From the IMG/VR virus record IMGVR_UViG_3300042455_000638: 64,000 nucleotides of DNA. One strand, written 5' to 3'. Below, in pieces: positions 3,601 through 41,738 of this stretch. How positions within the stretch are numbered: position 1 is the stretch's first letter; each line of letters begins with the position of its first letter. The notes beneath the pieces were generated by a model. It did not search any database. It was not told the origin of the DNA and saw nothing but the letters and a program-made list of their open reading frames with translations. This DNA comes from a virus. The position numbers and the translations under genes were made by a program.

Positions 3601-3690
3601 GGTTTCTCCTTTCTGCCAGAGAACACGAGTGACAAGCCCCGCAGGACTCGTCGGTCACACTCTCTGTCACCGGGGTCAACTGTACTTAGC
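3601..3690 (-). repeat. Composite intergenic element, copy 2
   Basis: GAGAACACGAGTG + stem-loop (ACGAGT...ACTCGT) + GGTCACACTCTCTGTCACCGGGGTCAACTGTACTTA. Its TTA is the stop of the upstream gene. Confidence 0.6.
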
Positions 3691-4273
3691 CTTCCATATC
3701 CTCTACACGGTCACGAATGTCCTCAATACTGTCTTCGAACCATGCGTACGGTACGACTGCAAACCAGCAGGCATCGGTACACTGGTACGTCTCGAACGTG
3801 TTGAACGTCTCAGGCCGGTAGATGCTGCCGATGCAGAAGTCACTACGTGGGTTTTCCCGCTCGGCCAGGACCAGCTCACGGATGTCCTCAACCTCGCAGT
3901 CAAGTTCCTCGGCCAGCATCTTGACCTCAACTTGGTTTTCGACTTCTTCGATGCTGGAGGACCACACTTGGCAACCGGCTTTTGCCTCGTCAACATCGGA
4001 GTTCCGGCGACCACTGAAGCGGTGGCCAGGCTCCATGTCAAACGACCATGCGTCAAACTCATCTACGACCATTCTGGTCTCGTCTGGCGTCCAGTCCGGG
4101 AAGTTGGTCTGGATGTACTCTTCCAAGACGGCCTTGACCCGGTGTGAGTCCTCCACGACGCAGTGCGTGTAGGCATCGCCAGCGTCACCGTGCTTCTCCT
4201 CGTACTCAAGGTGTGACTCGTCACACCGTTTCAGCAACTCACGAAAGCGTTGCTGCAGTTCTGGGTCGGTCAT
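3686..4273 (-). CDS. Hypothetical acidic protein (about 195 aa)
   Basis: Track ORF 3686..4372 trimmed to ATG 4271-4273 with GGAG RBS. ATGA overlap with the upstream gene. Stop is embedded in the conserved box. Confidence 0.5.
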   Translation of the reverse strand: MTDPELQQRFRELLKRCDESHLEYEEKHGDAGDAYTHCVVEDSHRVKAVLEEYIQTNFPDWTPDETRMVVDEFDAWSFDMEPGHRFSGRRNSDVDEAKAGCQVWSSSIEEVENQVEVKMLAEELDCEVEDIRELVLAERENPRSDFCIGSIYRPETFNTFETYQCTDACWFAVVPYAWFEDSIEDIRDRVEDMEG

Positions 4274-4581
4274 GGGTTCTCCAATGGTTTCCAGGAAAAA
4301 CTGCCGAAAGTGCTCAGGCACATGATGCAGTACCGGTACACGTCGTACGGACTGCCGTCTGTTAAGGCACACCGCAGCAGAACGGACATCGGTCCGCTGC
4401 TCCAGTCAGTATCGCTTTCTACAAGTACCCAACTTGGCTCACTCATACCCTGGTCAACAACGTGTAGGTCGTAACCGTACCCGCTTTGACTTCGGAACGA
4501 GCAAACGTACCCCGAGTCGATCCGGGGGTTGCTGTGGATCTTGTTGTCAACGATAGGGAACTTGCGTTCCAACGTACTCAC
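4270..4581 (-). CDS. Hypothetical protein (103 aa)
   Basis: Track ORF. GTG start with GAGGTG RBS. Confidence 0.45.
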   Translation of the reverse strand: MSTLERKFPIVDNKIHSNPRIDSGYVCSFRSQSGYGYDLHVVDQGMSEPSWVLVESDTDWSSGPMSVLLRCALTDGSPYDVYRYCIMCLSTFGSFSWKPLENP

Positions 4582-4649
4582 GTTTCACCTCACTTTCACA
4601 GGTCTGAATGAACACAATACCGGGCCACCGCAATGGCCCGGCGTTACGA
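4582..4649 (-). repeat. Partial copy (box GAACACAATACC + hairpin GGGCCACCGCAATGGCCC)
   Basis: Hairpin at 4621-4638 with the upstream box. The 35-bp box is absent. Confidence 0.45.
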
Positions 4650-5312
4650 TCACTCAGGACTGCCGTTCTCGTCAAACTCGTACTCGTTGGCGATGATATT
4701 CTCGGCAACAACTTCATCGCTGGTCAACCAGTCATGGTCTTTCTCAAGTCTGTTGTACAACCAGTCGGCCAACCATCGCAGGTTGTTCTCCACGACCGTT
4801 TCACGATCACGGTCCTCCATCTGTTCCCATTCGCCCTCCGAATTCTCGAAGTCGTTGAACTCGAACCGCATGGTGTGAGAGTGTGAGTACCGGCCAGTGG
4901 TTGTGATGTCCACTCGACACGTTGCGTTGTACGGTTCGACAAAGTCCACGAACAGACACGCAGCGATGTTGTGCAGGTCCGTATCCAGAGGAGCATACTC
5001 TTTGATCTTCTCGACCATGTCGAGCTTGCCCCGGAAGCAACCCTCGAAGCTGGCTCCATCACCCTGTGACCAGAAACCACTGAACTGGATGTTGGGCTTT
5101 TGACGAGTACCGCCACCCATAAGTTTCACAGGGCTGGTACTCAGCTCAACCCCGAGGATCTTGCAGACCTCTACGAAGTCATCGTAGACACTGTCCCACC
5201 ACTCGTAGTCAAGCCCACCATCCATGCCGAGATACCACTCACGGGCTTTCTGTTTTGCACTGTCCGACAGTTCTTCGTACTTGAAGACCTCTGTCACTTT
5301 GTTACGCGGCAT
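4650..5312 (-). CDS. Hypothetical highly acidic protein (220 aa)
   Basis: Track ORF. GAGGAGG RBS. Acidic, W/F-rich composition. No family recognised with certainty. Confidence 0.5.
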   Translation of the reverse strand: MPRNKVTEVFKYEELSDSAKQKAREWYLGMDGGLDYEWWDSVYDDFVEVCKILGVELSTSPVKLMGGGTRQKPNIQFSGFWSQGDGASFEGCFRGKLDMVEKIKEYAPLDTDLHNIAACLFVDFVEPYNATCRVDITTTGRYSHSHTMRFEFNDFENSEGEWEQMEDRDRETVVENNLRWLADWLYNRLEKDHDWLTSDEVVAENIIANEYEFDENGSPE

Positions 5313-5801: not shown

Positions 5802-5890
5802 TGTGAACCTCCTTTCTGAGAGAACACGATCGACGAGCCTCGCAAGGCTCGTCTGTCACACACTCTCACCGGGGTCAACTGTACTTACTC
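5802..5890 (-). repeat. Composite intergenic element, copy 3
   Basis: GAGAACACGATCG + hairpin GACGAGCCTCGCAAGGCTCGTC + TGTCACACACTCTCACCGGGGTCAACTGTACTTA. Confidence 0.6.
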
Positions 5891-6418
5891 TTCTACGTCT
5901 TCAACCTTGTAGATTGGGTATGGTGCCTCACCGTCTTCAAACCAGTCTGGACCCAGACAATACGTCTTAGGCCCGGTTGGACAAGGATTGCCAAGATGAC
6001 CGGCTCCGGGAGCACACGGACTGCAGAACTGAGCGTGAGTGTAGAAGGGACTCTTCAACACCCACACATCACCATCCTGAGCCAGCTTGAGGAAGTACCC
6101 GTCGCCTTCAAACTCCCACGGGCCACCCTCCTGACAGTCGTGCCACTCCACGTTGCCGATGATCTCAGCAGCCAGCTCGTCAGGATCACCAACCTGACCG
6201 TACGGGTCAATGGCCGCTGCAATGGCTCGTGCCAGCTCGTCTTTGGCCTGGTCACGCATGTTCTCAAAGCCGACATCAGTACCTTGTGTAATGAGGTCAT
6301 CAAGTGCTTCGGGCATCACGTCGTGCTGACTGATGACCCCATAGCGTATTCCGGTCACATGATCTCGGTTCGTCTGGCCAAGACCGTAGTCAATGCCAGT
6401 GTAGCTGGTCTCTTCCAA
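5885..6418 (-). CDS. Hypothetical acidic Cys-rich protein
   Basis: Track ORF 5885..6481 begins at a GTG inside the upstream hairpin. The likely start is TTG 6416-6418, 6 nt after GGAGGAG. That gives the same hairpin-box-RBS-start order seen in the other intergenic units. Confidence 0.4.
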   Translation of the reverse strand: MEETSYTGIDYGLGQTNRDHVTGIRYGVISQHDVMPEALDDLITQGTDVGFENMRDQAKDELARAIAAAIDPYGQVGDPDELAAEIIGNVEWHDCQEGGPWEFEGDGYFLKLAQDGDVWVLKSPFYTHAQFCSPCAPGAGHLGNPCPTGPKTYCLGPDWFEDGEAPYPIYKVEDVEE

Positions 6419-6510
6419 TGTAATCTCCTCCAAAGGTTCGAAAGTACACGATTGGGAACCACCGCAATGGCTCCCTGTCACACACTCTCAACCGGGGTCA
6501 ACTGTGTTTT
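6419..6510 (-). repeat. Composite intergenic element, copy 4
   Basis: AAGTACACGATTG + hairpin GGAACCACCGCAATGGCTCC + TGTCACACACTCTCAACCGGGGTCAACTGTG. Confidence 0.6.
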
Positions 6511-7470: not shown

Positions 7471-7534
7471 GGTTTAACTCCACAAGCGGAATTGCTTGAA
7501 CGAATGCCGGTGACCCCGGCACTCTATCGAACAA

Positions 7535-7822
7535 TCACTCCTCGCGTCTCCACTCAAGGTAACACGTACCCCTGTAGTTGTTATTCTTCATGGACCACAC
7601 CTCTTCCACGTATGACTCGTCACCGACAATCAGCAGCACTCTGCGTCCGCTGGCCATCGTAATAGCCGTACAAGGATAGAACTGGTCGAGCCACTGACGA
7701 GCTTCGAAGTACTCTTTGTTCTTCAAGGCGTAGTCGTCCTCACCTGCTTCAGGCTCAACGAACACCTGACTGTACGGCACCTTGTCAGCCGTAGTCTTCT
7801 TGGTTGACTTTCTCAGAGCCAC
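7535..7822 (-). CDS. Hypothetical protein (95 aa)
   Basis: Track ORF. GTG start after GGAGGTGAGCT. Confidence 0.45.
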   Translation of the reverse strand: MALRKSTKKTTADKVPYSQVFVEPEAGEDDYALKNKEYFEARQWLDQFYPCTAITMASGRRVLLIVGDESYVEEVWSMKNNNYRGTCYLEWRREE

Positions 7823-8099: not shown

Positions 8100-8140
8100 C
8101 CGGACACAATCAATCACCGCTCCCAACTGTACTTACCCTT
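8100..8140 (-). repeat. Degenerate copy of the 35-bp box (..CACCGCTCCCAACTGTACTTACC)
   Basis: Box fragment at the head of the leftward gene array, not attached to a coding stop. Confidence 0.35.
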
Positions 8141-8222
8141 TCCGCTTTCTTAGTACTACGGTCAGGGGGAGAATTCATATCCTTACAATGTGTAATTTTC
8201 AATGGAAAGAACAGTTCAGAAT

Positions 8223-8325: not shown

Positions 8326-9054
8326 ATGATTGGAACCGCAGTAGATGATAGAACATTCACGGAACGCCCCGCCCCGATCCATCTGGGACACTACCGAACC
8401 AGGCCGACAAATGCTGCAATACTGGTAGCAATCGCTGCTGCTCGAAAAATGCCAGGTGGGATCGGCAAGGCGATTGCGAACGTCTCAGGGACTCGCCAGT
8501 TGACTTGCCGAGTGTTTCCGGACGTTGAACCGGATCGAGACGAACAGCCCCGCCTGGAGGACGTGGAAACCCCTGGACAGCATGACGGACCGGCCCCGAC
8601 TGTAGACTACAGCGGACGCCCAACAACAAGGCAGGCCGATAGACCGTATCTCATCTGGTGGGCAATGTTGCAACAACCAGCAAAAGATATGATTGCAGAA
8701 CTACAACCGCACGACAGAGACGACATCAGACAAGACCTTGCGATAAAATACTGGAGGCAGGCAGTAAAACAGGAAGCTGCGGGGAACCGCATCACAAACC
8801 CAGTCCCATTCGTCGCAAAGGCAGTTTCGGCCTGGATAGGCCGGAATACTGGGATTGCCGAAGTAAACCCGCTAACGCAGCAGCAGAGAGAAGACGCCGT
8901 CGACGCACTTGACGCACAGAGGAAAGCGGCGGAAGAATCCCGACTGCAAGCACTTGACGCAGAATTGGCAATCGTACAAGCACGATTCCACGCAGCAACA
9001 ATTGCTAAACTGGACGCAAAGAAACCGGAATCAGTATTCTGCTTCAAATGGTAA
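8326..9054 (+). CDS. Hypothetical protein; C-terminal about 130 aa coiled-coil and HTH-like (start uncertain, alternative ATG at 8662)
   Basis: Long track ORF 8041..9054. The N-terminal third lies in an AT-rich promoter-like region. The C-terminal half (AIKYWRQAVKQEAAGNRITNPVPFVAKAVSAWIGRNTG...) is convincingly protein-like. Confidence 0.35.
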   Translation: MIGTAVDDRTFTERPAPIHLGHYRTRPTNAAILVAIAAARKMPGGIGKAIANVSGTRQLTCRVFPDVEPDRDEQPRLEDVETPGQHDGPAPTVDYSGRPTTRQADRPYLIWWAMLQQPAKDMIAELQPHDRDDIRQDLAIKYWRQAVKQEAAGNRITNPVPFVAKAVSAWIGRNTGIAEVNPLTQQQREDAVDALDAQRKAAEESRLQALDAELAIVQARFHAATIAKLDAKKPESVFCFKW

Positions 9055-9068
9055 GAACAGTTGCCGAC

Positions 9069-9084
9069 GGTGAATGATTGTAGA
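9069..9084 (+). promoter_or_regulatory. 16-mer GGTGAATGATTGTAGA, copy 2 (promoter-like, -10 TAGAGT)
   Basis: See copy 1. Immediately followed by a perfect inverted repeat. Confidence 0.4.
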
Positions 9085-9111
9085 GTCCCGGTCTCAATGT
9101 GAGACCGGGAC
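9085..9111 (+). promoter_or_regulatory. Perfect 12-bp inverted repeat GTCCCGGTCTCA-ATG-TGAGACCGGGAC (operator or transcript 5' hairpin)
   Basis: Perfect palindrome overlapping the TAGAGT -10-like hexamer. No U-tract follows, so it is unlikely to be a simple terminator. Confidence 0.45.
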
Positions 9112-9144
9112 CAACACGACAAACAAACAGTAAAGGTTAATACG

Positions 9145-9678
9145 ATGACATTCGAACAACTACGGGATTCTCTGATCGCAGACGGACTTTCCCCCGATAT
9201 GGCTTCCCAAATTGCTGCAAAGCAATTGGGACGACTCCAGGCCGAACTGGCGGCCGTCCAGGAACAAGCCCGTAAACAGGCAGAAGAAGCAGCAGGGATT
9301 GCGGACTGGTGCGGACTCCGGGTGACAAAACTTGGCTCAAATGGTAGGCCGACATCCTACACGATTGCGGCGGAAAACGGTGTCGCAGCAGAACCGCCTA
9401 AACTTGGAACCGATGAAAACGGAGCGGGTACGTTCTTTCCGGGATACCTTTGGATCGCTCGAAACAAGGAGAAACTACAGAACATCCCGCAATCGGTATG
9501 CAATACCATCCACAACCTGCTCCAAAGCGAGCAGGGAATTGAAGTGTTGAAACATGCTACCTCGTTTGCGTCCAATGCAGGACTGGCGGCCTACGCCACC
9601 AAACGGAAAGAACTAATTGCAGCCGGAACCGTAGCGGACTGGAACCGCAGCGGAAAGAAAGCCAAAGCAAAAGCCTAG
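9145..9678 (+). CDS. Hypothetical protein (177 aa)
   Basis: Track ORF. AAAGG RBS. Preceded by a perfect 12-bp inverted repeat and followed by another. Confidence 0.5.
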   Translation: MTFEQLRDSLIADGLSPDMASQIAAKQLGRLQAELAAVQEQARKQAEEAAGIADWCGLRVTKLGSNGRPTSYTIAAENGVAAEPPKLGTDENGAGTFFPGYLWIARNKEKLQNIPQSVCNTIHNLLQSEQGIEVLKHATSFASNAGLAAYATKRKELIAAGTVADWNRSGKKAKAKA

Positions 9679-9855: not shown

Positions 9856-10058
9856 TATATTACACGCCATTTCCAGTATATTGGAGGTGGCTGGACGGTA
9901 ACCCGCTACGTCAGTCCCGTTAAAACCTAGGATTGCCAGTGTTTTCCGCTCTTTCCTGCCATCCGGGGCAATGCCAGGGAAGTTAAGCCCAAATTCAGAC
10001 CGGGGCATCCTGGTCCTTACAGGGTCCTCTAGGCTATTTGGTAACCCAGCCACCTTTT

Positions 10059-10316
10059 TCACGTTTTTCCAAATCCTTACAAGTGACCCTTGGTAAAAGT
10101 TTTGCGTACCGGTACCCCCAGCACAGCCGTATATCCGCTTCACGTTTTTCCAAATCCTTACAAGTGACCCTTGGTAGAAGTTTTGTCCAACCTACGTCTC
10201 ACCCGGTAAAAGTTTTGCGTACCGGTACCTCCAGACTGGCTGCCTGCCGCCACGTCCTGTGACTGCCTGTTGAAGGTGAGACCTTGTTGGGGTTTTGCAT
10301 ACCGGCTCCACACGTC
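10059..10316 (+). repeat. Iteron-like direct repeats, candidate origin or regulatory locus
   Basis: 46-bp unit TTCACGTTTTTCCAAATCCTTACAAGTGACCCTTGGTA(A/G)AAGTTTTG at 10067 and 10139 (period 72 bp). Sub-repeat AAGTTTTGCGTACCGGTACC at 10098, 10208 and a degenerate copy at 10296. Contains palindrome GTACCGGTAC. Confidence 0.55.
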
Positions 10317-10388
10317 TGGCCGGGCCTTGACAGGCCCGACCGAGCTGGCGATGATGGCAGCGGCTTATCCCCTCAACGGAGACCAGAT

Positions 10389-10712
10389 ATGACCCCGAGA
10401 GCAAAGACCCTCTACTACCTTGGCTTTACCTCCTACAAAGCCTACCTACGGTCTGCATTGTGGAAATGGATCAGGGAGAAGGTTTTCAAGCAGAAGGGCC
10501 GTACGTGTGCCCTGTGCAGCCGTAGAGCCACTCAGATCCACCATCGGTCTTATGACCGTCTAACGCTCAGAGGGATCATCCTGGACTATCTGGAGCCCAT
10601 GTGCAGCGGTTGCCACCGTATGATCGAGGTGACACCATCAGGCCGCAAGAGGAAGCGGGCGGCTGTGGAGCGGATGTTCGTCAGGCTTAAACGAAAAAAG
10701 CTGGCCCGTTGA
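10389..10712 (+). CDS. HNH endonuclease
   Basis: CALCSRRATQIHHRSY...CSGCHRM matches the HNH C-x2-C...HH...C-x2-C-H pattern. GGAG RBS. Stop lies inside a bidirectional terminator. Confidence 0.6.
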   Translation: MTPRAKTLYYLGFTSYKAYLRSALWKWIREKVFKQKGRTCALCSRRATQIHHRSYDRLTLRGIILDYLEPMCSGCHRMIEVTPSGRKRKRAAVERMFVRLKRKKLAR

Positions 10713-10726
10713 GGCCAGCTTTACTT
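10692..10726. terminator. Bidirectional intrinsic terminator
   Basis: A6 - AGCTGGCC - loop - GGCCAGCT - TTTACTT. Sits where a rightward gene and the leftward operon converge. Confidence 0.6.
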
Positions 10727-11000
10727 AATGCAGATACTTGTAGAGAAGTGTTTACTTATCGTCACTCAACGCACACCTCCGCTTCGACAAACTCGCCCGG
10801 GCCACCGATGTCGCCCGAGCTGCGTACCACGTTAAACCACTGCATCGTCAACCTTTCGTATGTAAGCGTCATTGACCACGACACACTCAACAGTCTGTCT
10901 CACCGCGATCCAGACGTAGCAGCCGAGGTAGAATGGGACGAACCCGACGTTGAAAAGTCTCAACATCCAAATCGGTATCCATTGCATGTTGGGGTGGAGA

Positions 11001-11804
11001 CTACTTCTGCACAACTGGCACCTCGAATTCTTCGGTCTTGAGAACGATGCAGTACTTCCAGTTCTTTCGTATCTGCTCGACGTCGTTGGGGTTGATAGTG
11101 GTAGATGAGAAAGTGGGGGGTAATGAATCGCCGTACGCAAACGTCGTAAGAGACAACTTCATTGTCTTCTTCTGCTTCGGTCGGCGGAAGACGATAGTGT
11201 AGTACTTGTTCGCCCGGTACCAACCAACAGTGCGTCCGGGTTCGAACCACACACAACCAGAGGACTTCCGCCAGCCGGTGTTACAGTCCGTGTAGTTATG
11301 CTCGGAGTTAATGTCCGGTACATCGGATGCGTCCATCAACTCGTGGTCAGGACCAGTTGGGAGGGTTGGTATTGGTTCGGCAACAGTCTTGTGTCTAAGA
11401 ACCCTCGCAAGAGCCTGCTCCTCGGTGAGCTTCACCCGCTTACGGACAGCAGCAATACTGGGCATTGCCGCACTGCTGGATTCTACGCTCCCATCATGTT
11501 TGATGAAGCTCAAGAGCTTTGGACTGTCCACACGCACGTAAGCGTACACGTCTGGTACCGTCGTCTCGAAGTACTGTGGGTACACCACCGGTACCCAGTC
11601 CCAACCGTCGCAGTCCACAAGACGCTCTTTGTTCCGCAGCATGTAGTCAACCGGCAACCCATACACGCAGCCATCCATGCTCTCGCAGATAATCCGGCCA
11701 CCAACTGCCATGCCGTGAACCAGGATGCGGTGCCGCTTGTCCGTGTGGTTCTTCTCTGTCCACCACTGACCCTTTTCAATCTTAACTGACTCGACGTTTG
11801 ACAT
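11001..11804 (-). CDS. Hypothetical protein (267 aa)
   Basis: Track ORF. GGGAGAGGG RBS. First gene after the bidirectional terminator (minus-sense end of operon). Confidence 0.5.
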   Translation of the reverse strand: MSNVESVKIEKGQWWTEKNHTDKRHRILVHGMAVGGRIICESMDGCVYGLPVDYMLRNKERLVDCDGWDWVPVVYPQYFETTVPDVYAYVRVDSPKLLSFIKHDGSVESSSAAMPSIAAVRKRVKLTEEQALARVLRHKTVAEPIPTLPTGPDHELMDASDVPDINSEHNYTDCNTGWRKSSGCVWFEPGRTVGWYRANKYYTIVFRRPKQKKTMKLSLTTFAYGDSLPPTFSSTTINPNDVEQIRKNWKYCIVLKTEEFEVPVVQK

Positions 11805-16961: not shown

Positions 16962-17512
16962 TACACTTCCTCCTTCACAAAGATGCCTTCTGCCGTCAGG
17001 TGCCCCTTCCGGTCCTTGATCTGATCATAAGCCTGCTTGACGCAGTCCACAAGAGTTGTACCAGCTTCTTCCGCAATCTGAGAAATGTAGGCCACCATAA
17101 GCAGCCAGGTCATCCAGTACGAGCCTTGACCTTTACAAGCGGCCCCAAGTGGGATCAGAGCCTTCTGCAGTCTGTCGACGGGGTTGGGCACCGATGAAGG
17201 TACTACTGATGACCTCTGAGACGTAGGTGTCACCAGATCGCAGTACTCCTCGTCGTAGAGTGTGCTACCGACGATCAACGTGACGTAGATGTCTCCGATA
17301 GCGTCCATGATCTGCTCGTGAGTCCGTTCGTGTTGGTAGTCCCAGTCCGAGACCTTGTAAGCCATTAGATATCGCATTAGATACAAGGCTTCCACCAGCT
17401 CCTTCACCTCCTCTGCTGTCTTAAACGCCTGAGCGTAAGCCGAGCTGTGTGCCAGAATCTTCCGATCGTCTGCCCACTTAACGATCGCCAAGTTCAGTTC
17501 GTGCAACGTCAT
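16961..17512 (-). CDS. mazG: MazG-like nucleoside triphosphate pyrophosphohydrolase
   Basis: Acidic helix motifs typical of MazG (EEVKELVEAL, DAIGDIYVTLI). Trimmed to ATG 17510-17512 with GGAGGT RBS. Confidence 0.45.
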   Translation of the reverse strand: MTLHELNLAIVKWADDRKILAHSSAYAQAFKTAEEVKELVEALYLMRYLMAYKVSDWDYQHERTHEQIMDAIGDIYVTLIVGSTLYDEEYCDLVTPTSQRSSVVPSSVPNPVDRLQKALIPLGAACKGQGSYWMTWLLMVAYISQIAEEAGTTLVDCVKQAYDQIKDRKGHLTAEGIFVKEEV

Positions 17513-17548
17513 ATCAACCTCCGAATAAAATGTGAATGTCACCGGGCG

Positions 17549-17577
17549 TATCATCGCCCCGGTAAGACTTTTGTCAA
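17549..17577 (-). promoter_or_regulatory. Candidate leftward sigma70-like promoter (TTGACA-17-ATGATA) for the MazG operon
   Basis: Minus-sense TTGACAaaagtcttaccggggcgATGATA, about 35 nt upstream of the MazG-like start. The -10 is embedded in hairpin CACCGGGCG...CGCCCCGGTG. Confidence 0.35.
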
Positions 17578-17644
17578 ACCATCGTTGGTAAGATTCTTTA
17601 CCATAGGAACTGGTGTACAAACGTCTGGTGCAGCTACTGCATCT

Positions 17645-17660
17645 TGGTGCCCGGGCACCA
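17645..17660. promoter_or_regulatory. Perfect 16-bp palindrome TGGTGCCCGGGCACCA
   Basis: Seen directly in the divergent control region. Confidence 0.4.
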
Positions 17661-17827
17661 GCTTTCCGGATGCAGTTGACGATTGTACACTGTAGACTGG
17701 TAAAGATTTTTACTGTCCGGTACTGGTCTAACCTGGTATTACCGTCTACGGTTTAACCGGGCTTTGGCCCGGTAAACGTGGATGGGAGTTATTTAGAACC
17801 TTTCTCTGACAAATTTTTAGTATGGAT

Positions 17828-17856
17828 TTGACAGGCCAGCCTGGTAGACCTACTAT
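17828..17856 (+). promoter_or_regulatory. Consensus sigma70-type promoter TTGACA-17 nt-TACTAT, driving primase and the rightward operon
   Basis: -35 at 17828-17833 and -10 at 17851-17856 with a 17-nt spacer. Confidence 0.55.
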
Positions 17857-17886
17857 GCCCGCATCGCGGGCTAGTGGTCTACCAGG
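17840..17886. promoter_or_regulatory. Nested inverted repeats over the promoter -10 (CCTGGTAGACC ... GCCCGCATCGCGGGC ... GGTCTACCAGG)
   Basis: 11-bp outer arms at 17840-17850 and 17876-17886. 6-bp inner palindrome at 17857-17871. Operator-like. Confidence 0.45.
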
Positions 17887-18037
17887 TCTCGCTGGTTAAA
17901 CCGGCTTAAAGTTTTACCAGTGATTAGGTTTCTAACGAAACCCTTCAGGCTAGCCTGGCCTAACCTCGGGTATAACGTATAAGGTCTAACTGGTTTAACC
18001 TGTCTACCCGGTATGCAAAAAACCAAGGGTCCCCGCG

Positions 18038-18102
18038 ATACCGATCGGTATTGAAACCAAGGTTCCGGCGACTGAGGAACCCTCTGTGTCCCGATCGGTA
18101 AC
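18038..18102. promoter_or_regulatory. Two CCGATCGGTA sites (12-bp palindrome TACCGATCGGTA at 18039-18050; second site at 18091-18100) flanking IR GGTTCC...GGAACC
   Basis: Identical 10-mers 50 bp apart, about 35-85 bp upstream of TTGACA at 18136. Confidence 0.4.
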
Positions 18103-18198
18103 ATTCTCAAGTCTTGGCATCGCTGAAACCGAGACTTGACAACCCCGCCATCTGAATAGACACTATCTCCGTCCGACTTCCCCCGGAGATAGATAAAG

Positions 18199-20466
18199 AT
18201 GAATGAATTGCAAGAGCACCGCCAGGCGGCGTTGCGAACGGCTGGGCACCTCTGTCGCCACGGCATCCGTGTATTCCCACTCAGGTATGGCTACAAAGAT
18301 AAGTACCTTCACGAAGGCGACTGGGACGCCTACGCGACGAACAACATCAACACGTTCGTAACGCTCGTACCATCTGGACAGTTCAACCTCGCCATCTCAT
18401 TCGGACCGGAGTCTAATCTCTGTGACGTTGAGCCGGACGATGCAAACGCTGTTAAGATCCTTGACGAGATGATCAAGGAGTCCGGCGTCAAGACGATCAT
18501 GTACGCCACGTCTCGACGTGGTACGCATCATCTCTTCAAGTACGAACCTCGGCTGGCCGTATTCAACAAGGCCAACCTGAAGGTCAGCAACATCGAGTGC
18601 CGTCTCGGTCTCTACAACGAGAAGAACAAGCGACGACAGTATTCGGTAACGCCACCGTCGTTGCACCCGGATACTGGAGAGTTTTACAACTGGATAGAGG
18701 GGCACGCACCCTGGGACGTTGACCCAGCACCGATGCCAGAGAACATCATCCAGTTCTTCCTTACCAACTACACGGACAAGGACTACTCAAAGGCCGATGT
18801 CGTGTCAACCGGTGAAGGGTTTATTCCCGGCGAAGGCTACCGTCACGACTGGTTGCTGAAGTTCTCCAAGGAGCTTTACACCAAGTGGATGCTACCCCGC
18901 AACCATGTCGAAGACTTGTGCCGGTACATGTCACAAGCCATCGGTTCATACGAGATGGAGGGCCGAGGCGAGCATGAGATTAAGAACCTCTTCAACAACC
19001 TCCAGCGGCCGGTAGATCCGCTGAAAGAGTTAACCGCCGAGATCAGCATGGAGGACGTCAACGACGTTCTGGAAACCATGAGGTCCATGCAGGCAGCAAC
19101 CAATGCTGGCCAGTCACCAGAGATCCCGTCACACATCTTCCCAGCCGTCATTGAGGAAGCCAGTCAGAACGCAAAGCTAGCGGGCTACCCGAGGAATCTA
19201 TTTCTACATGCGGTCCTGTGCGTCACGTCGCACGCACTGGGGCAGGCCGTACGAGTCAGAGTTAGTCCAGACCACAGTACAATGGGTCTGCAGATGTTTT
19301 CATTCGGAGTGGGAGGTTCCGGGACGGGGAAGAGTAAGACCTTATCGGCCTTGCTAGGACCGGTCTCCCACTCCGAAAGTGTTACAACAGAGGGGAGCCC
19401 CGAAGGGCTTGTCTCCCTCATGAGTCGGTTCCAGCGGGGGATCATGCTGGAGTTCACCGAGGGTAAAGAGTTCTTCAAGATGCTCGGCAAGTATGGACCC
19501 AACGCTGGGCAGGGATCAGACAACAGTCTGTTCCACAAATGTTGGTCCGGTGACAAGATCAAGAGGACTCTGCAGAAGGGCACCTTCGGGGTACAGAGCC
19601 CGTTCCTCACAGTCTGTGCAGCCATCCAGAAGATTAACCTGAACCAGATGCCGATCAACGATTGTATGGACGGGCTCCTACCGAGAATGTTCGTCTATCC
19701 AATCGGTGACGTGCCAGCCAAAGAAGATCCCGCAGCCATAGCCAAGGTTCAGGAGTTCTTACAGCAGTGGTACGAGATCGTAGGGAGACTGGAGTCGGTG
19801 AAGCCGTCCATCGGCCTGCCATCAATCTCAGGTCTCCTCGCCGGTGCGGGCGTGGCTGTCAAGCCACTCACGATGACACTGGACCCTCAAGCCCGAGAAT
19901 TGTGGCGAGAGTATGCTGCCCATAAGAAGTCTCCGCAGACGCTCAGCCAGTGGCCAGAGGATCATCCGTACCGAGCAGACGTGGTTAGACATGCTGAGAT
20001 CGCGTTACGTACGTCAGCGGACCTTGTGATACTGGACTGCGGGTGTGATAAGCGGTTCTGGGAGTTGAACCAGGTTGGCAACCAGGATCACGGTAACATC
20101 AACAAGGATTGGATGCAGAAGTCCATCGACTTCATGGAGCACAACTGGTACCAGAAGCAGAAGCTGGTCGACGGCATCGTTGAGTCAGCTTTCGCGGTAG
20201 CCAGCGGTAACTACATGCTGGGTCGAGAAGAATCGGTACCAGCTCGGTTCGCCGTACAAGCGGCCGACCGGCGTCGACGTGTCGAGAAGTCATTCGGGGA
20301 GGTGTGGACCCTGAGAGAGTACTACAGTGTTCTCAAGTTGAAGAAAGATGAAGCCAGGAAGGAACTGGACATGTTTCTTCGAGAGGGCACTGTCGTAGAA
20401 TTGCCAATGCAGGACGGACAGAAAGCCGCCCGATTCAAATTTTTAGGAGAGATAGATGACAAGTGA
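18199..20466 (+). CDS. Bifunctional primase-polymerase (PrimPol N-terminal domain) fused to a P-loop NTPase (helicase-like) domain
   Basis: N-terminus (IRVFPL...CDVEPDD...TSRRGTHHLF) resembles the PrimPol D-x-D and T-x-G-G-x-H motifs. Walker A GGSGTGKSKT in the C-terminal half. First gene downstream of the TTGACA-17-TACTAT promoter. Confidence 0.55.
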   Translation: MNELQEHRQAALRTAGHLCRHGIRVFPLRYGYKDKYLHEGDWDAYATNNINTFVTLVPSGQFNLAISFGPESNLCDVEPDDANAVKILDEMIKESGVKTIMYATSRRGTHHLFKYEPRLAVFNKANLKVSNIECRLGLYNEKNKRRQYSVTPPSLHPDTGEFYNWIEGHAPWDVDPAPMPENIIQFFLTNYTDKDYSKADVVSTGEGFIPGEGYRHDWLLKFSKELYTKWMLPRNHVEDLCRYMSQAIGSYEMEGRGEHEIKNLFNNLQRPVDPLKELTAEISMEDVNDVLETMRSMQAATNAGQSPEIPSHIFPAVIEEASQNAKLAGYPRNLFLHAVLCVTSHALGQAVRVRVSPDHSTMGLQMFSFGVGGSGTGKSKTLSALLGPVSHSESVTTEGSPEGLVSLMSRFQRGIMLEFTEGKEFFKMLGKYGPNAGQGSDNSLFHKCWSGDKIKRTLQKGTFGVQSPFLTVCAAIQKINLNQMPINDCMDGLLPRMFVYPIGDVPAKEDPAAIAKVQEFLQQWYEIVGRLESVKPSIGLPSISGLLAGAGVAVKPLTMTLDPQARELWREYAAHKKSPQTLSQWPEDHPYRADVVRHAEIALRTSADLVILDCGCDKRFWELNQVGNQDHGNINKDWMQKSIDFMEHNWYQKQKLVDGIVESAFAVASGNYMLGREESVPARFAVQAADRRRRVEKSFGEVWTLREYYSVLKLKKDEARKELDMFLREGTVVELPMQDGQKAARFKFLGEIDDK

Positions 20467-20910: not shown

Positions 20911-21095
20911 CCAAGGTCACGTTCTGTTTGATCGGTAGAGCCGGGTGCAACATCCACTTCGTGTGGGACGATGTTGGACCCGGCCTTTACGTTCAATGGT
21001 CTGACAGTGAAGAACTGACCGGCCGGATCGTGCGGGAAGGCGATGGTACTTTCCCGGACAAGTACTTTGCACATTTGACGGAGGTGTTAGCGTGA
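20907..21095 (+). CDS. Hypothetical small protein
   Basis: ATG at 20907 overlaps the upstream stop (ATGA). Confidence 0.35.
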   Translation: MTKVTFCLIGRAGCNIHFVWDDVGPGLYVQWSDSEELTGRIVREGDGTFPDKYFAHLTEVLA

Positions 21096-21664
21096 ACGTG
21101 CTTGTTGCGTGTGAGTACAGCGGACGGGTGCGAGATGCCTTCCGCAAACTTGGCCATGATGCTTGGTCCTGCGATATCATCGACTCGGAGACACCGAGCG
21201 AGTACCACATCAAGGCCGATGTTCTCAGCGTTCTCAACTGCGGCTGGGATCTGATCATCGCTCACCCACCTTGTACGTACCTCTGCAACAGCGGAGTCCG
21301 TTGGTTGTACACAGAAGAGGGGCGTCTCAAGAAGATGACCGCTGCTGCCGGTTTCTTCAAAAGATTTCTCGAAGTTGACTGCCCGAGAGTCTGTATTGAG
21401 AATCCGATCATGCACAAGCACGCCAAGGTTATCATCGGTGTAGACTACACCCAGATCGTTCAACCGTGGCAGTATGGCCACGGGGAGACAAAGGCTACTT
21501 GCCTCTGGTTAAAGGGTTTGCCAAAGCTGGAACCGACAAACATCGTTGAAGGGCGTGAGGCCCGGATACATATGATGTCACCGGGGAAGGACCGGGGTAA
21601 GAAGCGGTCTGAGACGTATCAAGGTATTGCCGACGCGATGGCGGCACAGTGGGGCAGTTTATGA
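21092..21664 (+). CDS. Minimal DNA C5-cytosine methyltransferase-like protein
   Basis: IAHPPCTYLCNSG resembles C5-MTase motif IV (PC). VCIENP resembles motif VI (ENV). No convincing FxGxG motif I, so function is uncertain. Confidence 0.35.
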   Translation: MNVLVACEYSGRVRDAFRKLGHDAWSCDIIDSETPSEYHIKADVLSVLNCGWDLIIAHPPCTYLCNSGVRWLYTEEGRLKKMTAAAGFFKRFLEVDCPRVCIENPIMHKHAKVIIGVDYTQIVQPWQYGHGETKATCLWLKGLPKLEPTNIVEGREARIHMMSPGKDRGKKRSETYQGIADAMAAQWGSL

Positions 21665-23199
21665 GCACATGGGTCTACGCACGAGTATCAACCCTCGACC
21701 AGTACGTCAACGGGTACTCCATCGACCAACAGGTTCGGGTGTGCCTTGAGTACGCCAAGAACAACGACTACCTGCTTGGTCTTGAGACCAACTGCGACCT
21801 GCCCGGTGTCTTCATTGACGGCGGTAAGTCAGCCTTCAAGAAGAAGCTATGCCAACGGCCGGGTGGGCTCATGCTGCTCGGCAACGCTAAGCCCGGCGAC
21901 GTCATCATCGCGTTGGCCACCCACCGTCTGTTCCGCCAGTTCAACGACATGGTTGCTGTGATGGACCAGTGGGTACAGAACGGCGTGACGGTGAAGTTCG
22001 TCGACTACCCGACGCTCAACACCGACACAGCCAATGGCAAGGCGATGCTTTACATGATGGCGGTCATGGCTCAGCTAAGATCCGAGTTGATCTCAGCCCG
22101 AGTCAAAGAGTCACGAGTCATCGCAAGGACGAAGGCCCCCGAGAGGCCAAAGCCCAAACCCGTCGAGACCATCTGCTCATCAAAAGATGTCGGTGCTATC
22201 CTACAGCAGATGCAGCGTGACCGTGAAGCGGACAAGTACAAGTTCACGGGAAGGGTCCACGCATACGTCCGTGTATCCACGAACGACCAGACTGTTGAGC
22301 ATCAAGTCAACCTGCTCACAAAGATGTTGCCCGACGATCTGCGTGGAGCTGAGATTGTCTGGTACAAGGACGAAGGGGTGTCAGCCTTCAAGACCAAGTT
22401 CGAGAAGAGAAAGGCTGGGGGCGAGATGCTCAAGGCACTGAAGCCCGGCGACATGGTTGTGGCGTGGCGACCAGACCGTCTCTTCAGGTCAATGGTCGAC
22501 GCTAACCGAGTGGTCGATTCGATCCACAAGACCGGGGCGTCCCTGATGACCGTTGAGGGCGATCTGCGGACAGACAAACCACAGGGCAAGATGCTCATGC
22601 AGATGCTGGCCATGTTTGCCGAGATCGAGTCACAGGACATCTCACGCCTGACAAGACTCGGTAACTTCGGGGCCATTGGTATCAACCCGAAGATGCAGGC
22701 GATGCGTGTACCGAAGCTCCTGCGTGAGATGAAGAAACACTTCAACCAGAAGCACTACCACTTCGAGAACATTTTCACAGCCGACGAACGGTTCTACATG
22801 CACATCGAGCTTCACCTGACCGCGAAGAACTATCGTAGTCGGAAGGAGGCTTGCCGGGTCATCAGTAACAAGTGGCTGGCGAAGAAAGGTCTACCACCGG
22901 TACAGGGTGAGTACGGCGAACCTTGTAAGAACTACGCAAGAAGAATCCACAACATGCAGAAGGTGGAGTTCACCGAACGACGTCATCGGTTGTGTGAGCG
23001 GTTGAAGAAGCACCCGGACGAAGTGAGGTATCCGTTGAGTACAGAGACGGCTTGTCAGCTCGTGAGGAACCAGACAGAGTTCCTTCGTGTTGCGAAGATG
23101 TTTCCGGGGCGGCTGAAGGATAAGCAGTCACTGACGATGCTGGCGTCATCGTGTACGTCACCAGAGGCTGCAGTAGATTTCATGGGGAGACTGGGATGA
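21661..23199 (+). CDS. Serine recombinase with two tandem resolvase-type catalytic domains
   Basis: Two complete catalytic cores, at about aa 5-150 and 205-340. Each has YARVST.DQ / YVRVSTNDQ (Ser nucleophile), D.G.SAFK, R.DRLFR (R-x2-R) and a ...AE.ES..IS.R helix E. A unique C-terminal domain of about 170 aa follows. Confidence 0.65.
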   Translation: MSTWVYARVSTLDQYVNGYSIDQQVRVCLEYAKNNDYLLGLETNCDLPGVFIDGGKSAFKKKLCQRPGGLMLLGNAKPGDVIIALATHRLFRQFNDMVAVMDQWVQNGVTVKFVDYPTLNTDTANGKAMLYMMAVMAQLRSELISARVKESRVIARTKAPERPKPKPVETICSSKDVGAILQQMQRDREADKYKFTGRVHAYVRVSTNDQTVEHQVNLLTKMLPDDLRGAEIVWYKDEGVSAFKTKFEKRKAGGEMLKALKPGDMVVAWRPDRLFRSMVDANRVVDSIHKTGASLMTVEGDLRTDKPQGKMLMQMLAMFAEIESQDISRLTRLGNFGAIGINPKMQAMRVPKLLREMKKHFNQKHYHFENIFTADERFYMHIELHLTAKNYRSRKEACRVISNKWLAKKGLPPVQGEYGEPCKNYARRIHNMQKVEFTERRHRLCERLKKHPDEVRYPLSTETACQLVRNQTEFLRVAKMFPGRLKDKQSLTMLASSCTSPEAAVDFMGRLG

Positions 23200-23477
23200 C
23201 GCTGAAAGAAAAGATTCTTGAACTAAGCGGCGAGTATCTGTTGGTCCACAAGTCACACATCAGAACCATGCAGGTGTATGACATCGCTAAGAGCGGGTAT
23301 CTGACCCGGGCTGACATCATGGCGATGGGCAGCGATATATGTCCTGACGTCGAGATCGTGTACTCCAAGCTCAGCATGGAGGACCTTCTGAAGCAGCACG
23401 AGGATTGGACTGTAGACGAACTGATCAGGTATCTTGAGGCACCAAAGCCTGAGCCCACACAATCAGATCCGTCCTGA
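23196..23477 (+). CDS. Hypothetical protein (93 aa)
   Basis: ATG overlaps the recombinase stop (ATGA). Followed by a strong intrinsic terminator. Confidence 0.5.
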   Translation: MTLKEKILELSGEYLLVHKSHIRTMQVYDIAKSGYLTRADIMAMGSDICPDVEIVYSKLSMEDLLKQHEDWTVDELIRYLEAPKPEPTQSDPS

Positions 23478-23667
23478 ATATCTGAAGACGACCACCCAAC
23501 CAGAATGACCCGAGGTAGCAACGCACCTCGGGTCTTTTTTTGTTCTGTACCCCTTTGAGGCACCAGTTGCGAACGGTATCCGTTGTCACCTCAATGCCAC
23601 GTTGGCTGAGCCAAGCGACAACCTCTTTCGGGGATAGGTGCGGCGGTTCATTCTCTACATTCAACAC
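23425..23667 (-). CDS. Small HTH DNA-binding protein (MerR/AlpA/excisionase-like)
   Basis: LSPKEVVAWLSQRGIEVTTDTVRNWCLKG is a typical HTH. GTG start after GGAG. Divergent from the capsid cassette. C-terminal 30 aa read through the plus-strand terminator hairpin, so the true length is uncertain. Confidence 0.4.
   Translation of the reverse strand: MLNVENEPPHLSPKEVVAWLSQRGIEVTTDTVRNWCLKGVQNKKRPEVRCYLGSFWLGGRLQIFRTDLIVWAQALVPQDT
23507..23541 (+). terminator. Intrinsic terminator
   Basis: GACCCGAGGT - 8-nt loop - ACCTCGGGTC followed by T7. Confidence 0.7.
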
Positions 23668-23807
23668 CTGTAACTCCGTCTGGGGGTAAAACCGAAGAAA
23701 CCGAAAAAGCCGAATCTAGGTAGTTTGTAAACATCTTGCTATTGCAATGCAAGTCTAAAAAGATTCTCATGCTTGGGAATGTTTCACCCCAGACATAAGG
23801 ATCAGGC

Positions 23808-39125: not shown

Positions 39126-39810
39126 CAGAAGCCAAGTTAACAACAGGTCCCAAGTTGACCTGTCGGCAGTCATTCCGTGGATAAACGACGCAGGAGCTGA
39201 GATACCCGCGTACGGAGTTATCCAACTTCGGACGAACTACGACACTACCAGTCACGCCCTAAAGCCAGACGGCACTACGGGGCTGTTCTTCGTCAACGGC
39301 CCGGTACCCGTTGCCAGCACAAAGCGTGGCGAGTCCCTCGTGTGGAATCGCCCGAGAACTGTTCTGCTCGATGGGTCTTCCGTCGGCCGGGAAGTGGGAC
39401 CTGTAGAAGCCTCTTGGCAGATGACGTCAGAAGGCACCGGGTTCCGCGTACTGAAACAGGCGGTTGCGGGAGTCGGCGTTGTCGTCCAAGTTGGGGGTGG
39501 AGGGACTGGCGGGGGCGGTCACCGGATCTGGTTTGACATCACCTCCGTAACATGCAATGAGGACCTCACGAAAACCCTTACTGTTAATGTTACCCACTTC
39601 ACTGGCGGCTGCGACGAACCGATTCCCGGAGAAGATGAGTACGGGAACATAATTGTTGAAGACATTTGTGGAATCCTGAACTACTATACCGAGATTTGGC
39701 TTGAATCCGGAGGGATCAAGGGGAGTGCCACGTACGTCTATCCGAGGAGCGGGTACTGTGAGCCTAAGTGGATTGTCGATAATGTCTGTGGTCAGCCGGA
39801 GTGTGCGTAA
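39118..39810 (+). CDS. Hypothetical Gly-rich structural protein (230 aa)
   Basis: Track ORF. Confidence 0.45.
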   Translation: MIDRSQVNNRSQVDLSAVIPWINDAGAEIPAYGVIQLRTNYDTTSHALKPDGTTGLFFVNGPVPVASTKRGESLVWNRPRTVLLDGSSVGREVGPVEASWQMTSEGTGFRVLKQAVAGVGVVVQVGGGGTGGGGHRIWFDITSVTCNEDLTKTLTVNVTHFTGGCDEPIPGEDEYGNIIVEDICGILNYYTEIWLESGGIKGSATYVYPRSGYCEPKWIVDNVCGQPECA

Positions 39811-41738
39811 TGGGACCTGAGTACTGGAAACCCGGCGTACCAACAGCGTTGAAGAAGTGCAGCGAGCGGGTATCAAACTCCTGCACCGATGAGACGGACG
39901 GGTGCTGTGCAGTCATCGCGTGTAGCTACTGTCTTGAGTGGAACCCCGATTACGGTCAGACCAAGAAAGGTTTTGCCACGTTCTTTGGCACGTACTGGTC
40001 CGGGTCCGTGGCAGGTGCAACGTGGATAGGTAGATGGGAGCGAGAGATCCTCCCGGATGTAACTCCCCCGCTCAGTGCTAACTCAGCAGGCATGTCGTTC
40101 GCCCCAATCGCTGGCGGTACGTACATGATGGGGAGTCCCGGGTCCGAGACAGGTAGACTGTCCAACGAGGATCAAGTCTCCAAGACGGTTGAGGCTTTTA
40201 ATATCGGAACGACAGAGGTCACGCAGGCCCAGTACTTGGCAGTACGCGGGCTAAGCCCGAGTCATTTCGCCGGGTCAGGTCGTCCGGTGGAGATGGTATC
40301 CTACTCCGACGCATTGGCGTTTTGCTCGACCCTGTCGGCCCGCCCATCGGAAATAGCGATGGGTAGAACGTACCGGCTACCAACCGAAGCTGAGTGGGAG
40401 TGGGCGTGCCGGGCAGGTACAACCACAGCGTACTCCTTCGGGGCAAACCCTGTGGACCTGCCGACGTACGGATGGTTCGAGGATAACAGTGGGGCAGAGA
40501 CCCATGACGTTTCGTTGAAGTCCCCCAACACCTCCAACCTATACGACATGCACGGTAACGTATGGGAGTGGGCACAGAACGACCAGTTGGACGCGGTCGA
40601 GGGGGAGCAGGTTATACGTGGAGGGGGTTGGGACTCTACCGCAGCCCAGTGCCGGTCAGCAAGTCGACAGACGGTGGCGGAGACAACGAAAGCAAACAAC
40701 ATAGGCTTTCGCGTTGTCATGATGCAGGCACCAATCCCCCAGTTAGGTGACTGCGAGTTCGTTGTCACGTTTGACGAAGACGAGGTCTACCGCAAGTCAT
40801 GCGAGTACGGCCAATCGTGCCGAGACTCCAGTGACTCTGCGGTAGCCACGATCGGGTACTACGATACCGGCGTGATCAGTTGGACGAAGTACGAGCCCAG
40901 ACCGCTGCACTACCGAGACGACGACTACAGCTACTGCAAGGTACACTACTGCGATGACTGTGAATGCACATGCGAGGAGCTATGCGTCGACGTACGGGAA
41001 GTGTTGACGTATGGGTACAGCGACTTCATCGACACGTATGAAGGTACGTTGGCAAACACCGCGTACCCTTGTGACCCTCCAGTGTGGGAAGGGACTGTTG
41101 GTAGCTTTGATTTGTCTCTTGCTCTGGGACATGACGAGTACGGGGCCTGTGTAATCACCCCAACAGTTAATGGGTATGATCAACCCGCCATTCCCGCTCC
41201 TGGGTGTGCGGACATGGAGGCTACCCTTGTCCTGGAAGACGGCAGTGAGATAACGGTCCGCTGCAAGAAGTGTGACTGCCCAGATGGAATTGGCGACTGT
41301 ATCTGTGGTCGACCGATGGGGCCTATCCTACGTGTCGTTTGGTCGTCGGGCAACGGAACTCATGGCAGTGCGTCAAGGACGTTTGACTTGACGTATGGCA
41401 TGGTCGACGAGCCAACGATATCATGTTCCCCTTGGTCACCTAACCCGTTCCCCGGCTACCGAGGCAGCGTGTCCGGGACGTTCCCAATCCCAATGGGTGG
41501 CACACGAGCAGACACGCTGGAGGTAATTTTGGTTTGCGAATGTACTGGTTGCCAGTATTGTATATATTACCGATGGGTAAACGATGATGCTTATCCTACC
41601 TGGCAAGTGGTTCCTTACACCATTCTCACTTGTGACTGCCCCGCCGTCTTAGACGTGATCGGCGGTTTCACTGAAGGTAACGTATGGGGGTATCAGGTCA
41701 GTGATGTCATGATCTATGAGTTGGAGGACAACTGCTGA
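39801..41738 (+). CDS. FGE-sulfatase (SUMF1/EgtB-like) domain protein with Cys-rich C-terminal half
   Basis: GNVWEW, VIRGGGWDS...CRSASR, MGSPGSE and TEAEWEWACRAG match conserved FGE-sulfatase blocks at about aa 100-310. The C-terminal 300 aa carry many Cys pairs. Confidence 0.5.
   Translation: MCVMGPEYWKPGVPTALKKCSERVSNSCTDETDGCCAVIACSYCLEWNPDYGQTKKGFATFFGTYWSGSVAGATWIGRWEREILPDVTPPLSANSAGMSFAPIAGGTYMMGSPGSETGRLSNEDQVSKTVEAFNIGTTEVTQAQYLAVRGLSPSHFAGSGRPVEMVSYSDALAFCSTLSARPSEIAMGRTYRLPTEAEWEWACRAGTTTAYSFGANPVDLPTYGWFEDNSGAETHDVSLKSPNTSNLYDMHGNVWEWAQNDQLDAVEGEQVIRGGGWDSTAAQCRSASRQTVAETTKANNIGFRVVMMQAPIPQLGDCEFVVTFDEDEVYRKSCEYGQSCRDSSDSAVATIGYYDTGVISWTKYEPRPLHYRDDDYSYCKVHYCDDCECTCEELCVDVREVLTYGYSDFIDTYEGTLANTAYPCDPPVWEGTVGSFDLSLALGHDEYGACVITPTVNGYDQPAIPAPGCADMEATLVLEDGSEITVRCKKCDCPDGIGDCICGRPMGPILRVVWSSGNGTHGSASRTFDLTYGMVDEPTISCSPWSPNPFPGYRGSVSGTFPIPMGGTRADTLEVILVCECTGCQYCIYYRWVNDDAYPTWQVVPYTILTCDCPAVLDVIGGFTEGNVWGYQVSDVMIYELEDNC

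Follow-up and report, generated by a model that had tools for sequence, protein, structure and literature searches.

The small serine recombinases, such as the gamma-delta and Tn3 resolvases and the invertases Gin and Hin, consist of one catalytic domain of ~140 amino acids (aa) followed by a C-terminal helix-turn-helix (HTH), ~185 aa in all (180–210), and act as dimers on symmetric sites. Large serine recombinases (LSRs; phiC31, Bxb1, TP901-1, SPbeta SprA) combine one catalytic domain with the PF07508 domain and a zinc ribbon with coiled coil, while in IS607-like enzymes an N-terminal MerR-like HTH precedes the catalytic domain. To our knowledge, all mechanistic models of serine recombinases assume four subunits, identical or paralogous, of which each brings one active site and a DNA-binding domain of its own. 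The present study concerns a gene (nt 21661–23199, + strand) of IMG/VR virus record IMGVR_UViG_3300042455_000638, from which a stretch of 64,000 nt (the window), the genome of an uncultured freshwater tailed phage, was analysed. Its product, of 512 aa, is a single polypeptide with two complete serine recombinase catalytic domains in tandem, as had been claimed in an earlier note made from the sequence alone. The reading we favour, although we give it no better than an even chance, is that of a single-chain, pseudo-dimeric serine recombinase which would act on the phage's own replicating DNA.

The phage protein has the catalytic fold, active-site residues and helix E in common with the small serine recombinases, but differs from them in its two catalytic domains, its 512 aa, the lack of a detectable HTH and a single orphan tail of 170 aa. 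With the large serine integrases it shares a phage context and overall size, but its sequence showed neither the PF07508 (Recombinase) domain nor a zinc ribbon or a coiled coil. Unlike IS607-like proteins, it opens with the catalytic motif at residue 5.

The open reading frame (ORF) is intact, with 512 codons before its stop and none interrupted. The ATG at nt 21661 overlaps the TGA of an upstream methyltransferase gene as ATGA, a coupling described in the earlier note and seen directly here, and M1 does not vary among the aligned relatives of the recombinase. Pfam family PF00239 is matched twice, which was the check proposed for the two domains. The first, D1 (nt 21661–22128, + strand; aa 1–156; codon of the nucleophile Ser10 at nt 21688–21690), scores 88.3 bits when residues 1–180 are scanned alone, and the second, D2 (nt 22255–22683, + strand; aa 199–341; Ser206 codon at nt 22276–22278), scores 102.4 bits for residues 181–360, both over nearly the whole profile and against a cut-off of 23.3. 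All of the motifs originally quoted are present (YARVSTLDQ/YVRVSTNDQ, DGGKSAFK/DEGVSAFK, HRLFR/DRLFR and both helix-E segments). In each domain the catalytic fold is of the alpha/beta type and leads into a long helix E, which in the structure model of D1 occupies residues 124–156. The best match of D2 in the PDB is gamma-delta resolvase (E 3.7e-18), with Gin also among the top PDB sequence matches, and two PHROGs families, phrog_95 ('integrase', E 1e-55) and phrog_125 ('DNA invertase', E 5e-55), each match the recombinase in two stretches. None of the curated NCBIfam subfamily models comes near its threshold: the Mpi invertase model reaches 44 bits against a cut-off of 272, IS607 20 against 110, and CcrA, CcrB and CcrC 22–42 against 700–900, with CcrB and CcrC included among the best sub-threshold matches of D1/D2. 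Between the domains lies a linker (nt 22129–22254, + strand; aa 157–198) that is basic and Pro-rich (RTKAPERPKPKP) and then forms a short helix. Its isoelectric point (pI) is 9.65, residues 158–175 have a predicted local distance difference test score (pLDDT) of <50 in the full-length AlphaFold2 (AF2) model, and its conservation (0.39) is the lowest of all regions of the protein.

Equivalents of the Tn3/gamma-delta resolvase residues Y6, R8, S10, Q14, Q19, D36, S39, R45, D59, R68 and R71 are invariant in both domains among 57 relatives (in D1, by its own numbering, Y6, R8, S10, Q14, Q24, D53, S57, R66, D80, R89 and R92), and are nearly universal in both domains across 199 tandem proteins. The mutagenesis of Tn3 resolvase by Olorunniji and Stark identified Y6, R8, S10, D36, R68 and R71 as key catalytic residues (PMC2794168). 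Since every one of these is invariant in D1 as well as in D2, the suggestion that the protein might be a degenerate regulatory copy is disfavoured; with high confidence it is a genuine serine recombinase, and both catalytic domains of the chain are probably active. Conservation is higher in D1 (0.70) than in D2 (0.66).

D1 departs from the canonical set at two positions only, having His88 at the equivalent of D67 and Lys/Arg140 at that of E118; D2 is canonical (D272-R273...R276, E323). At the E118 position, D1 has Lys or Arg in 56 of the 57 close relatives and in 107 of the 199 proteins overall, and D2 has Glu in 57/57 and 195/199, respectively. The canonical Asp occurs at the D67 position of D1 in 94 of the 199. 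In Tn3 resolvase, D67 was termed 'not essential' and E118 lies on the 1-2 dimer interface, where both Glu side chains touch; mutants at the two positions lost resolution in vivo and cleaved ~50-fold more slowly, yet retained substantial cleavage and recombination in vitro (PMC2794168). A pairing of Lys (D1) with Glu (D2) would be expected if D1 and D2 pack like two resolvase subunits, and the two residues may form a complementary pair across a D1:D2 interface, as in the resolvase dimer.

The C-terminal domain (nt 22684–23196, + strand; aa 342–512) is an orphan, basic, all-helical and putatively DNA-binding domain with a pI of 9.9 and a net charge of +16. Modelled alone, residues 342–512 give a confident all-helical fold (pLDDT 85.5; predicted template modelling score, pTM, 0.74). 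It had been described as a unique domain of about 170 aa, and this holds: searches with 24 members found no match in Pfam, PDB sequence profiles gave none, and a structural comparison with the viral models of BFVD returned nothing at E ≤0.001 (best E 1.6). As it has no relative in these three collections and no conserved Cys/His cluster, it is neither the HTH of the small recombinases nor the recombinase/zinc-ribbon domain of the LSRs, and neither HTH_7 nor any other HTH family reaches threshold anywhere in the recombinase. No folded domain directly follows D1, where there is just the disordered, basic, Pro-rich segment and the short helix, so that the two catalytic domains would share one putative DNA-binding module.

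Distribution and origin of the tandem family

Contigs from various samples and assemblers, at least 15 of them, carry the gene for the identical 512-aa protein, and four loci match the window at 100% identity. When 5.8 billion proteins were searched by a word index, 57 full-length relatives (93–32% identity, ~500–575 aa) were recovered; these come from metagenomes only and in no case from an isolate. Searched exhaustively with a profile, 1.84 billion cluster representatives yielded 215 clusters at E <1e-30; nearly all of the best 150 of these are 450–590 aa long and span both domains. Two catalytic domains are present in 199 of 204 retrieved sequences, drawn from ~200 clusters, so that the database search for the same domain order, proposed in the earlier note, recovered 199 tandem proteins. 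Eight distant members have two PF00239 stretches apiece and no other domain. Linker length ranges from 28 to 73 aa (168 proteins; median 42 aa, 5th–95th percentile 34–57 aa), and the family medians are 198 aa for Ser-to-Ser spacing, 167 aa for the C-terminal tail and 515 aa in total.

D1 and D2 are 34% identical (E 3e-18). When domains were compared all against all, the nearest neighbour was an N-domain for 169/169 N-domains and a C-domain for 169/169 C-domains, and the median N-to-C similarity (61.6 bits) exceeded the similarity to gamma-delta resolvase (49.3 bits). Because N-domains group with N-domains and C-domains with C-domains, and because the N-to-C score exceeds that for gamma-delta resolvase, sequence comparison indicates that the tandem form arose once, by one ancient internal duplication of which both copies have long been retained.

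No tandem match was obtained by tblastn of the recombinase against 50,697 deposited phage records, and the portal and PrimPol proteins of the window had no match in them either. Among 72,556 plasmid records there was no tandem protein, and among the matches inspected from a list of 600 pattern matches in 185,579 species genomes there were only single-domain relatives of ≤35% identity and no tandem protein. Three archaeal matches of 1.2 kb in the genome scan are pairs of separate genes. They lie in Methanomassiliicoccales metagenome-assembled genomes (L006, nt 3676–5302; L033, nt 10001–11681; L085, nt 10001–11228) as adjacent, slightly overlapping paralogous serine recombinase genes, with pair sizes of 256+287 aa and 274+290 aa, and form a counterpart to the phage protein in which the polypeptides are separate instead of fused. 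Serine recombinases with tandem catalytic domains are not described in any paper that full-text literature searches turned up, and some 200 related phage protein clusters keep the design. The impression of an unusual architecture was therefore correct: the tandem layout is a previously undescribed serine recombinase architecture with an orphan domain that is a candidate for DNA binding.

In an uncultured clade of tailed phages with genomes of 63–72 kb, the tandem recombinase belongs to the syntenic core. Near-complete contigs are of this length and, since the gene is found at varying offsets in them, are circular permutations.

Proposed mechanism and rival explanations

It is proposed, with moderate confidence, that the protein is a covalent pseudo-dimer that would bring both nucleophiles to one asymmetric site and form a synapse from two protomers. 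The pairing of D1 with D2 would run through their E helices, as between the subunits of a resolvase dimer, and one protomer would then supply both nucleophiles for the double-strand break at one crossover site. Because the lone C-terminal domain would read one flank only, such a site would be intrinsically asymmetric, and a synapse with four active sites would be built from two protomers instead of four subunits. The enzyme may act on replicating phage DNA, for example in the interconversion of monomers and multimers or in circularisation at a single phage site. Action on the phage's own replicating DNA is suggested by the location of the gene in a PrimPol/helicase operon, together with the lack of lysogeny apparatus and of integrated copies. 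The PrimPol/DUF3987 helicase gene (nt 18199–20466, + strand; PF09250, PF13148) is the first large gene of the rightward operon containing the recombinase, and is conserved upstream of the recombinase in related loci (L001, L002, L169, L170, L173, L181). Translational coupling within this operon and synteny in near and distant members support a role in replication, and the position of the recombinase in the operon points to co-transcription with replication genes and to expression during replication. In one divergent lineage the recombinase gene lies beside 5'-3' exonuclease, AAA and DUF5131 replication genes. A role in the lytic replication cycle, rather than as a lysogeny integrase, is put forward with lower confidence than the pseudo-dimer itself.

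Several points weigh against this pseudo-dimeric replication enzyme. The full-length structure model has a pTM of 0.50, and docking of D1 on D2 is a prediction. Complementarity between Lys (D1) and Glu (D2) is limited to 107 of the 199 proteins, and 32 of the 199 have Glu at the E118 position of D1. DNA binding by the C-terminal domain is presumed, its charge being the sole basis, and the repeat searches of the window identified no target site for the recombinase. In the canonical mechanism subunits rotate by 180 degrees, which would pull the tethered D1 and D2 apart if both sat on one crossover site; D1 and D2 of one chain might instead be a co-rotating pair across the synapse. For a phage serine recombinase of ~500 aa the prior expectation is 'integrase'. 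Finally, a recombinase of 90% identity (P0206) is carried on a contig of 109,791 bp, well above the usual 63–72 kb. A 35-mer metagenome scan gave two contigs, one of which has 77,023 bp and a single copy (L185 = Ga0208855_1000020, nt 47707–61862); either of the contigs of 109,791 bp and 77,023 bp could represent a concatemer, a larger variant or an integrated form.

The most serious rival is a lysogeny integrase, which would recombine an attP close to the gene with an attB of the bacterium, use the small convergent ORF or the 93-aa ORF downstream (see below) as directionality factor or regulator, and have tandem domains as an unusual integrase dimer. The best PHROGs family is indeed the 'integrase' phrog_95, the size resembles that of large serine integrases, and the gene stands at the boundary of the replication and structural modules beside a conserved small ORF. 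Temperate phages, such as the cluster A mycobacteriophages, may also carry PolA and primase. The protein lacks the domains that follow the catalytic domain in such integrases, however, and none of the more than 45 contigs seen, collapsed ones included, has host genes within ±10 kb of the recombinase; phage genes lie on both sides, and complete contigs are circular permutations of 63–72 kb. No close relative occurs among the matches listed from the species genomes, nor in the isolates covered by the protein search. The window contains no repressor, partition or tyrosine-integrase families and no tRNA or Rfam elements that could mark an attP, and the gene is co-transcribed with replication genes. 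An integrase is for these reasons possible but doubtful. A second rival, a DNA invertase flipping a promoter or tail-fibre segment in the manner of Gin, Hin and Cin, is very unlikely. Source annotations name relatives 'DNA invertase Pin-like', phrog_125 is matched at E 5e-55, and a short inverted repeat (nt 23678–23690/23782–23794) encloses ~91 bp, with versions enclosing 83–102 bp recurring in the window, L168, L166 and L172. As an invertible promoter, nt 23678–23794 was rejected: its orientation does not change between the window, L168, L169, L170 and L173, and its arms coincide with the leader and ribosome-binding site (RBS) regions of two divergent genes. Moreover, L170 does not conserve the left arm and the repeat is missing from L002, and an inversion loop of 91 bp would be very short. 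All 12 related loci examined are collinear with the window and have no inverted segment; searches of the whole window for paired sites in the form of long repeats, inverted or direct, gave chance-level pairs only. With no strong inverted repeats flanking any segment, no att evidence, no inversions, no lysogeny families, no tRNA and no host junctions found, the earlier view that the context fits lysogeny or inversion control is not upheld.

It is also conceivable, although rather improbable, that one domain only is catalytic and that the other, most likely D1 with its His at D67 and Lys at E118, is a structural or regulatory pseudo-enzyme mimicking a partner subunit. D1 does deviate at two conserved positions, and the corresponding Tn3 resolvase mutants are those with lost in vivo resolution and ~50-fold slower cleavage; these same mutants keep substantial activity in vitro (PMC2794168). 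Asp is present at D67 in 94/199 D1 domains, and D1 is the more conserved domain, with a catalytic set invariant in 57 and near-invariant in 199 proteins, which is unexpected for a scaffold. That two adjacent ordinary recombinase genes were joined by a sequencing or assembly error is effectively refuted. Adjacent, separate serine recombinase genes do exist, as in Methanomassiliicoccales L006 and L033, but a frameshift or assembly artefact is ruled out by the identical protein on at least 15 independent contigs and by a fused layout kept in 199 proteins down to ~30% identity; in addition, there is no stop or DNA-binding domain between D1 and D2, and linker length is constrained.

A more far-reaching form of the pseudo-dimeric reading may be stated, though we think it unlikely. 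Tandem serine recombinases would then be a fourth architectural class beside the small, large and IS607-type enzymes, in which the whole double-strand break would be the work of one chain and two chains would complete the synapse. The phages appear to be lytic, and in them the protein would be a replication-cycle enzyme acting on the large palindrome at nt 17840–17886 (see below), for example to resolve or interconvert multimers or even to process a hairpin or cruciform. We know of no serine recombinase that processes hairpins or cruciforms.

Neighbouring genes and control regions

Immediately upstream of the recombinase is the DNA methyltransferase gene to which it is coupled (nt 21092–21664, + strand; phrog_757, E 2e-58). 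The gene is optional in relatives; it is missing in L002, where PrimPol abuts the recombinase. Downstream, the recombinase stop is ATGA-coupled to a 93-aa ORF (nt 23196–23477, + strand) that has no Pfam or PADLOC match, is called as a gene on the identical contigs L181–L184 and has longer counterparts in L168, L169 and L170. A stem-loop terminator (nt 23507–23534), with a stem of 10–11 bp containing 7 GC pairs and followed by the T-run TTTTTTTGTT, closes the rightward operon. The strong terminator expected after the recombinase thus exists, but the 93-aa ORF intervenes. Beyond it is a conserved small ORF of 80 aa (nt 23425–23667, – strand), the 3' end of which is overlapped by the 93-aa ORF by ~50 nt; its true C-terminus is uncertain, since the terminator hairpin lies inside its annotated reading frame. 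All relatives, the distant P0092, P0125 and P0080 among them, have a small ORF of 74–134 aa at this position. It had been taken for a divergent small HTH gene. The gene is there, but it converges on the recombinase gene and diverges only from the late operon, and it is a possible HTH regulator with weak HTH-like Pfam matches (best E-values 0.004–0.1, all below threshold). The order of recombinase, 93-aa ORF, terminator, small convergent ORF, regulatory region and structural genes recurs in near and distant relatives.

The regulatory region of the structural (late) operon (nt 23668–23807) is highly conserved, with 82% mean identity among relatives whose recombinases are 64–93% identical, always in one orientation and better conserved than the flanking genes. 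It contains phased AAACCGA repeats and the palindrome CTTGCtaTTGCAAtGCAAG, and a leader motif, ATTCTCAT..GGGAAT..CCCCCAGA..AGGA, is kept down to a relative with a 44%-identical recombinase. No sigma-70 consensus promoter was found in nt 23668–23807.

The divergent intergenic region upstream of PrimPol (nt 17620–18199) carries many iteron-like repeats (GGTTTAACC/GGTCTAAC) and a large palindrome of 47 bp (nt 17840–17886), a candidate origin and speculative recombinase target. This confirms the palindrome-dense control region previously noticed in the vicinity of the gene. Large palindromes (44–63 bp) occur at the same place upstream of PrimPol across the clade, with differing sequences: that of L169 (~nt 6420–6470) shows compensatory changes relative to the window on both arms, that of L170 (nt 5854–5897) is perfect over 44 bp, and that of L002 (nt 7506–7568) has 30-nt arms. 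The cumulative GC-skew minimum falls at 18–20 kb. In the simplest reading the palindrome/iteron region is probably a replication origin; it might conceivably also be a res-like or other recombinase site.

Direct repeats of 47 nt and 30 nt containing TTTTGC(A/G)TACCGG are present in three copies at nt 10058–10314 and in one inverted copy at nt 17998–18026. Every copy faces outward-reading genes, and the repeats are therefore probably promoters of one class. A leftward block of 7.7 kb between TTTTGCATACCGG repeats (nt 10287/17998) was considered as an invertible segment and rejected, its orientation being constant in all relatives and the motif being promoter-like before outward-reading genes. 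Intergenic cassettes of 50–70 nt (nt 665–739, 2737–2768, 3618–3706, 4601–4656, 5813–5905, 6435–6509 and 8105–8153) each consist of a GC-rich stem-loop (e.g. GGGGGCCACCGCAGTGGCCCCC) and then ...CACCGGGGTCAACTGTACTTA, and look like terminator-plus-promoter units punctuating a small-gene, perhaps early, region.

Elsewhere, the window encodes a portal protein, DNA polymerase A, MazG, an NT5C-like nucleotidase, a DNA repair exonuclease, the PrimPol/DUF3987 helicase, a weakly matching TerL, DUF2800, an Enc34-type SSB, VRR-NUC and a tail tube protein; the defence-system library of PADLOC gave no match. Unusual phage cargo is seen at nt 39801–41738, where a 645-aa protein matches phrog_18508 ('kinase', E 3e-48), and there are further Pfam matches to FGE-sulfatase (E 1e-33), Band_7/SPFH and Peptidase_C1. 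An ORF of 1623 aa lies at nt 45434–50305. Within the ORF at nt 53885–56479 (864 aa), the C-terminus of which matches phrog_18251, is a direct repeat of 300 nt, 80% identical (nt 54247–54546 and 54865–55164), which is probably a repeated domain of a tail or fibre protein. Close relatives hold mobile endonuclease insertions that are absent from the window (L173–L177, nt 17409–20207 and equivalents; L168, nt 10116–10931; L170, nt 1168–3021; L173, nt 8911–9444). In relatives, the TerL homologue has 932 aa with a LAGLIDADG_3 match, against 589 aa in the window, giving it an intein-like look, and further insertions carry GIY-YIG/NUMOD3, another LAGLIDADG and HNH_3 genes.

Comparison with known systems

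A natural enzyme that combines two active sites in a chain with a single DNA-binding module would make it possible to test how far dimer assembly, the control of synapsis and subunit rotation depend on free subunits, and likewise how an intrinsically asymmetric site is read and whether the 180-degree rotation can proceed with a tether in place. Serine recombinases are major tools of genome engineering; as a scaffold, a compact, single-chain, asymmetric-site enzyme with a new DNA-binding fold could prove useful there. The tandem recombinase is universally retained as a core gene in an abundant clade of uncultured freshwater phages that show no sign of lysogeny, which suggests that site-specific recombination has a use in the lytic cycle that has so far gone unrecognised.

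Among natural systems, the arrangement recalls tnpR beside res, as the recombinase operon likewise starts at a repeat-rich divergent intergenic region. The use of two diverged paralogous catalytic domains together is shared with CcrA/CcrB of SCCmec and with the gene pairs of Methanomassiliicoccales L006 and L033. In both of these the polypeptides are separate and each has a DNA-binding region of its own, whereas the phage protein is fused and has one shared C-terminal domain. Two different subunits are also tied together, or forced, onto an asymmetric site in engineered zinc-finger recombinases and in obligate heterotetramers of the Cre type (PMC3241657, PMC8789052). Those are laboratory constructs, of which the tandem phage protein would be a natural and anciently fixed equivalent.

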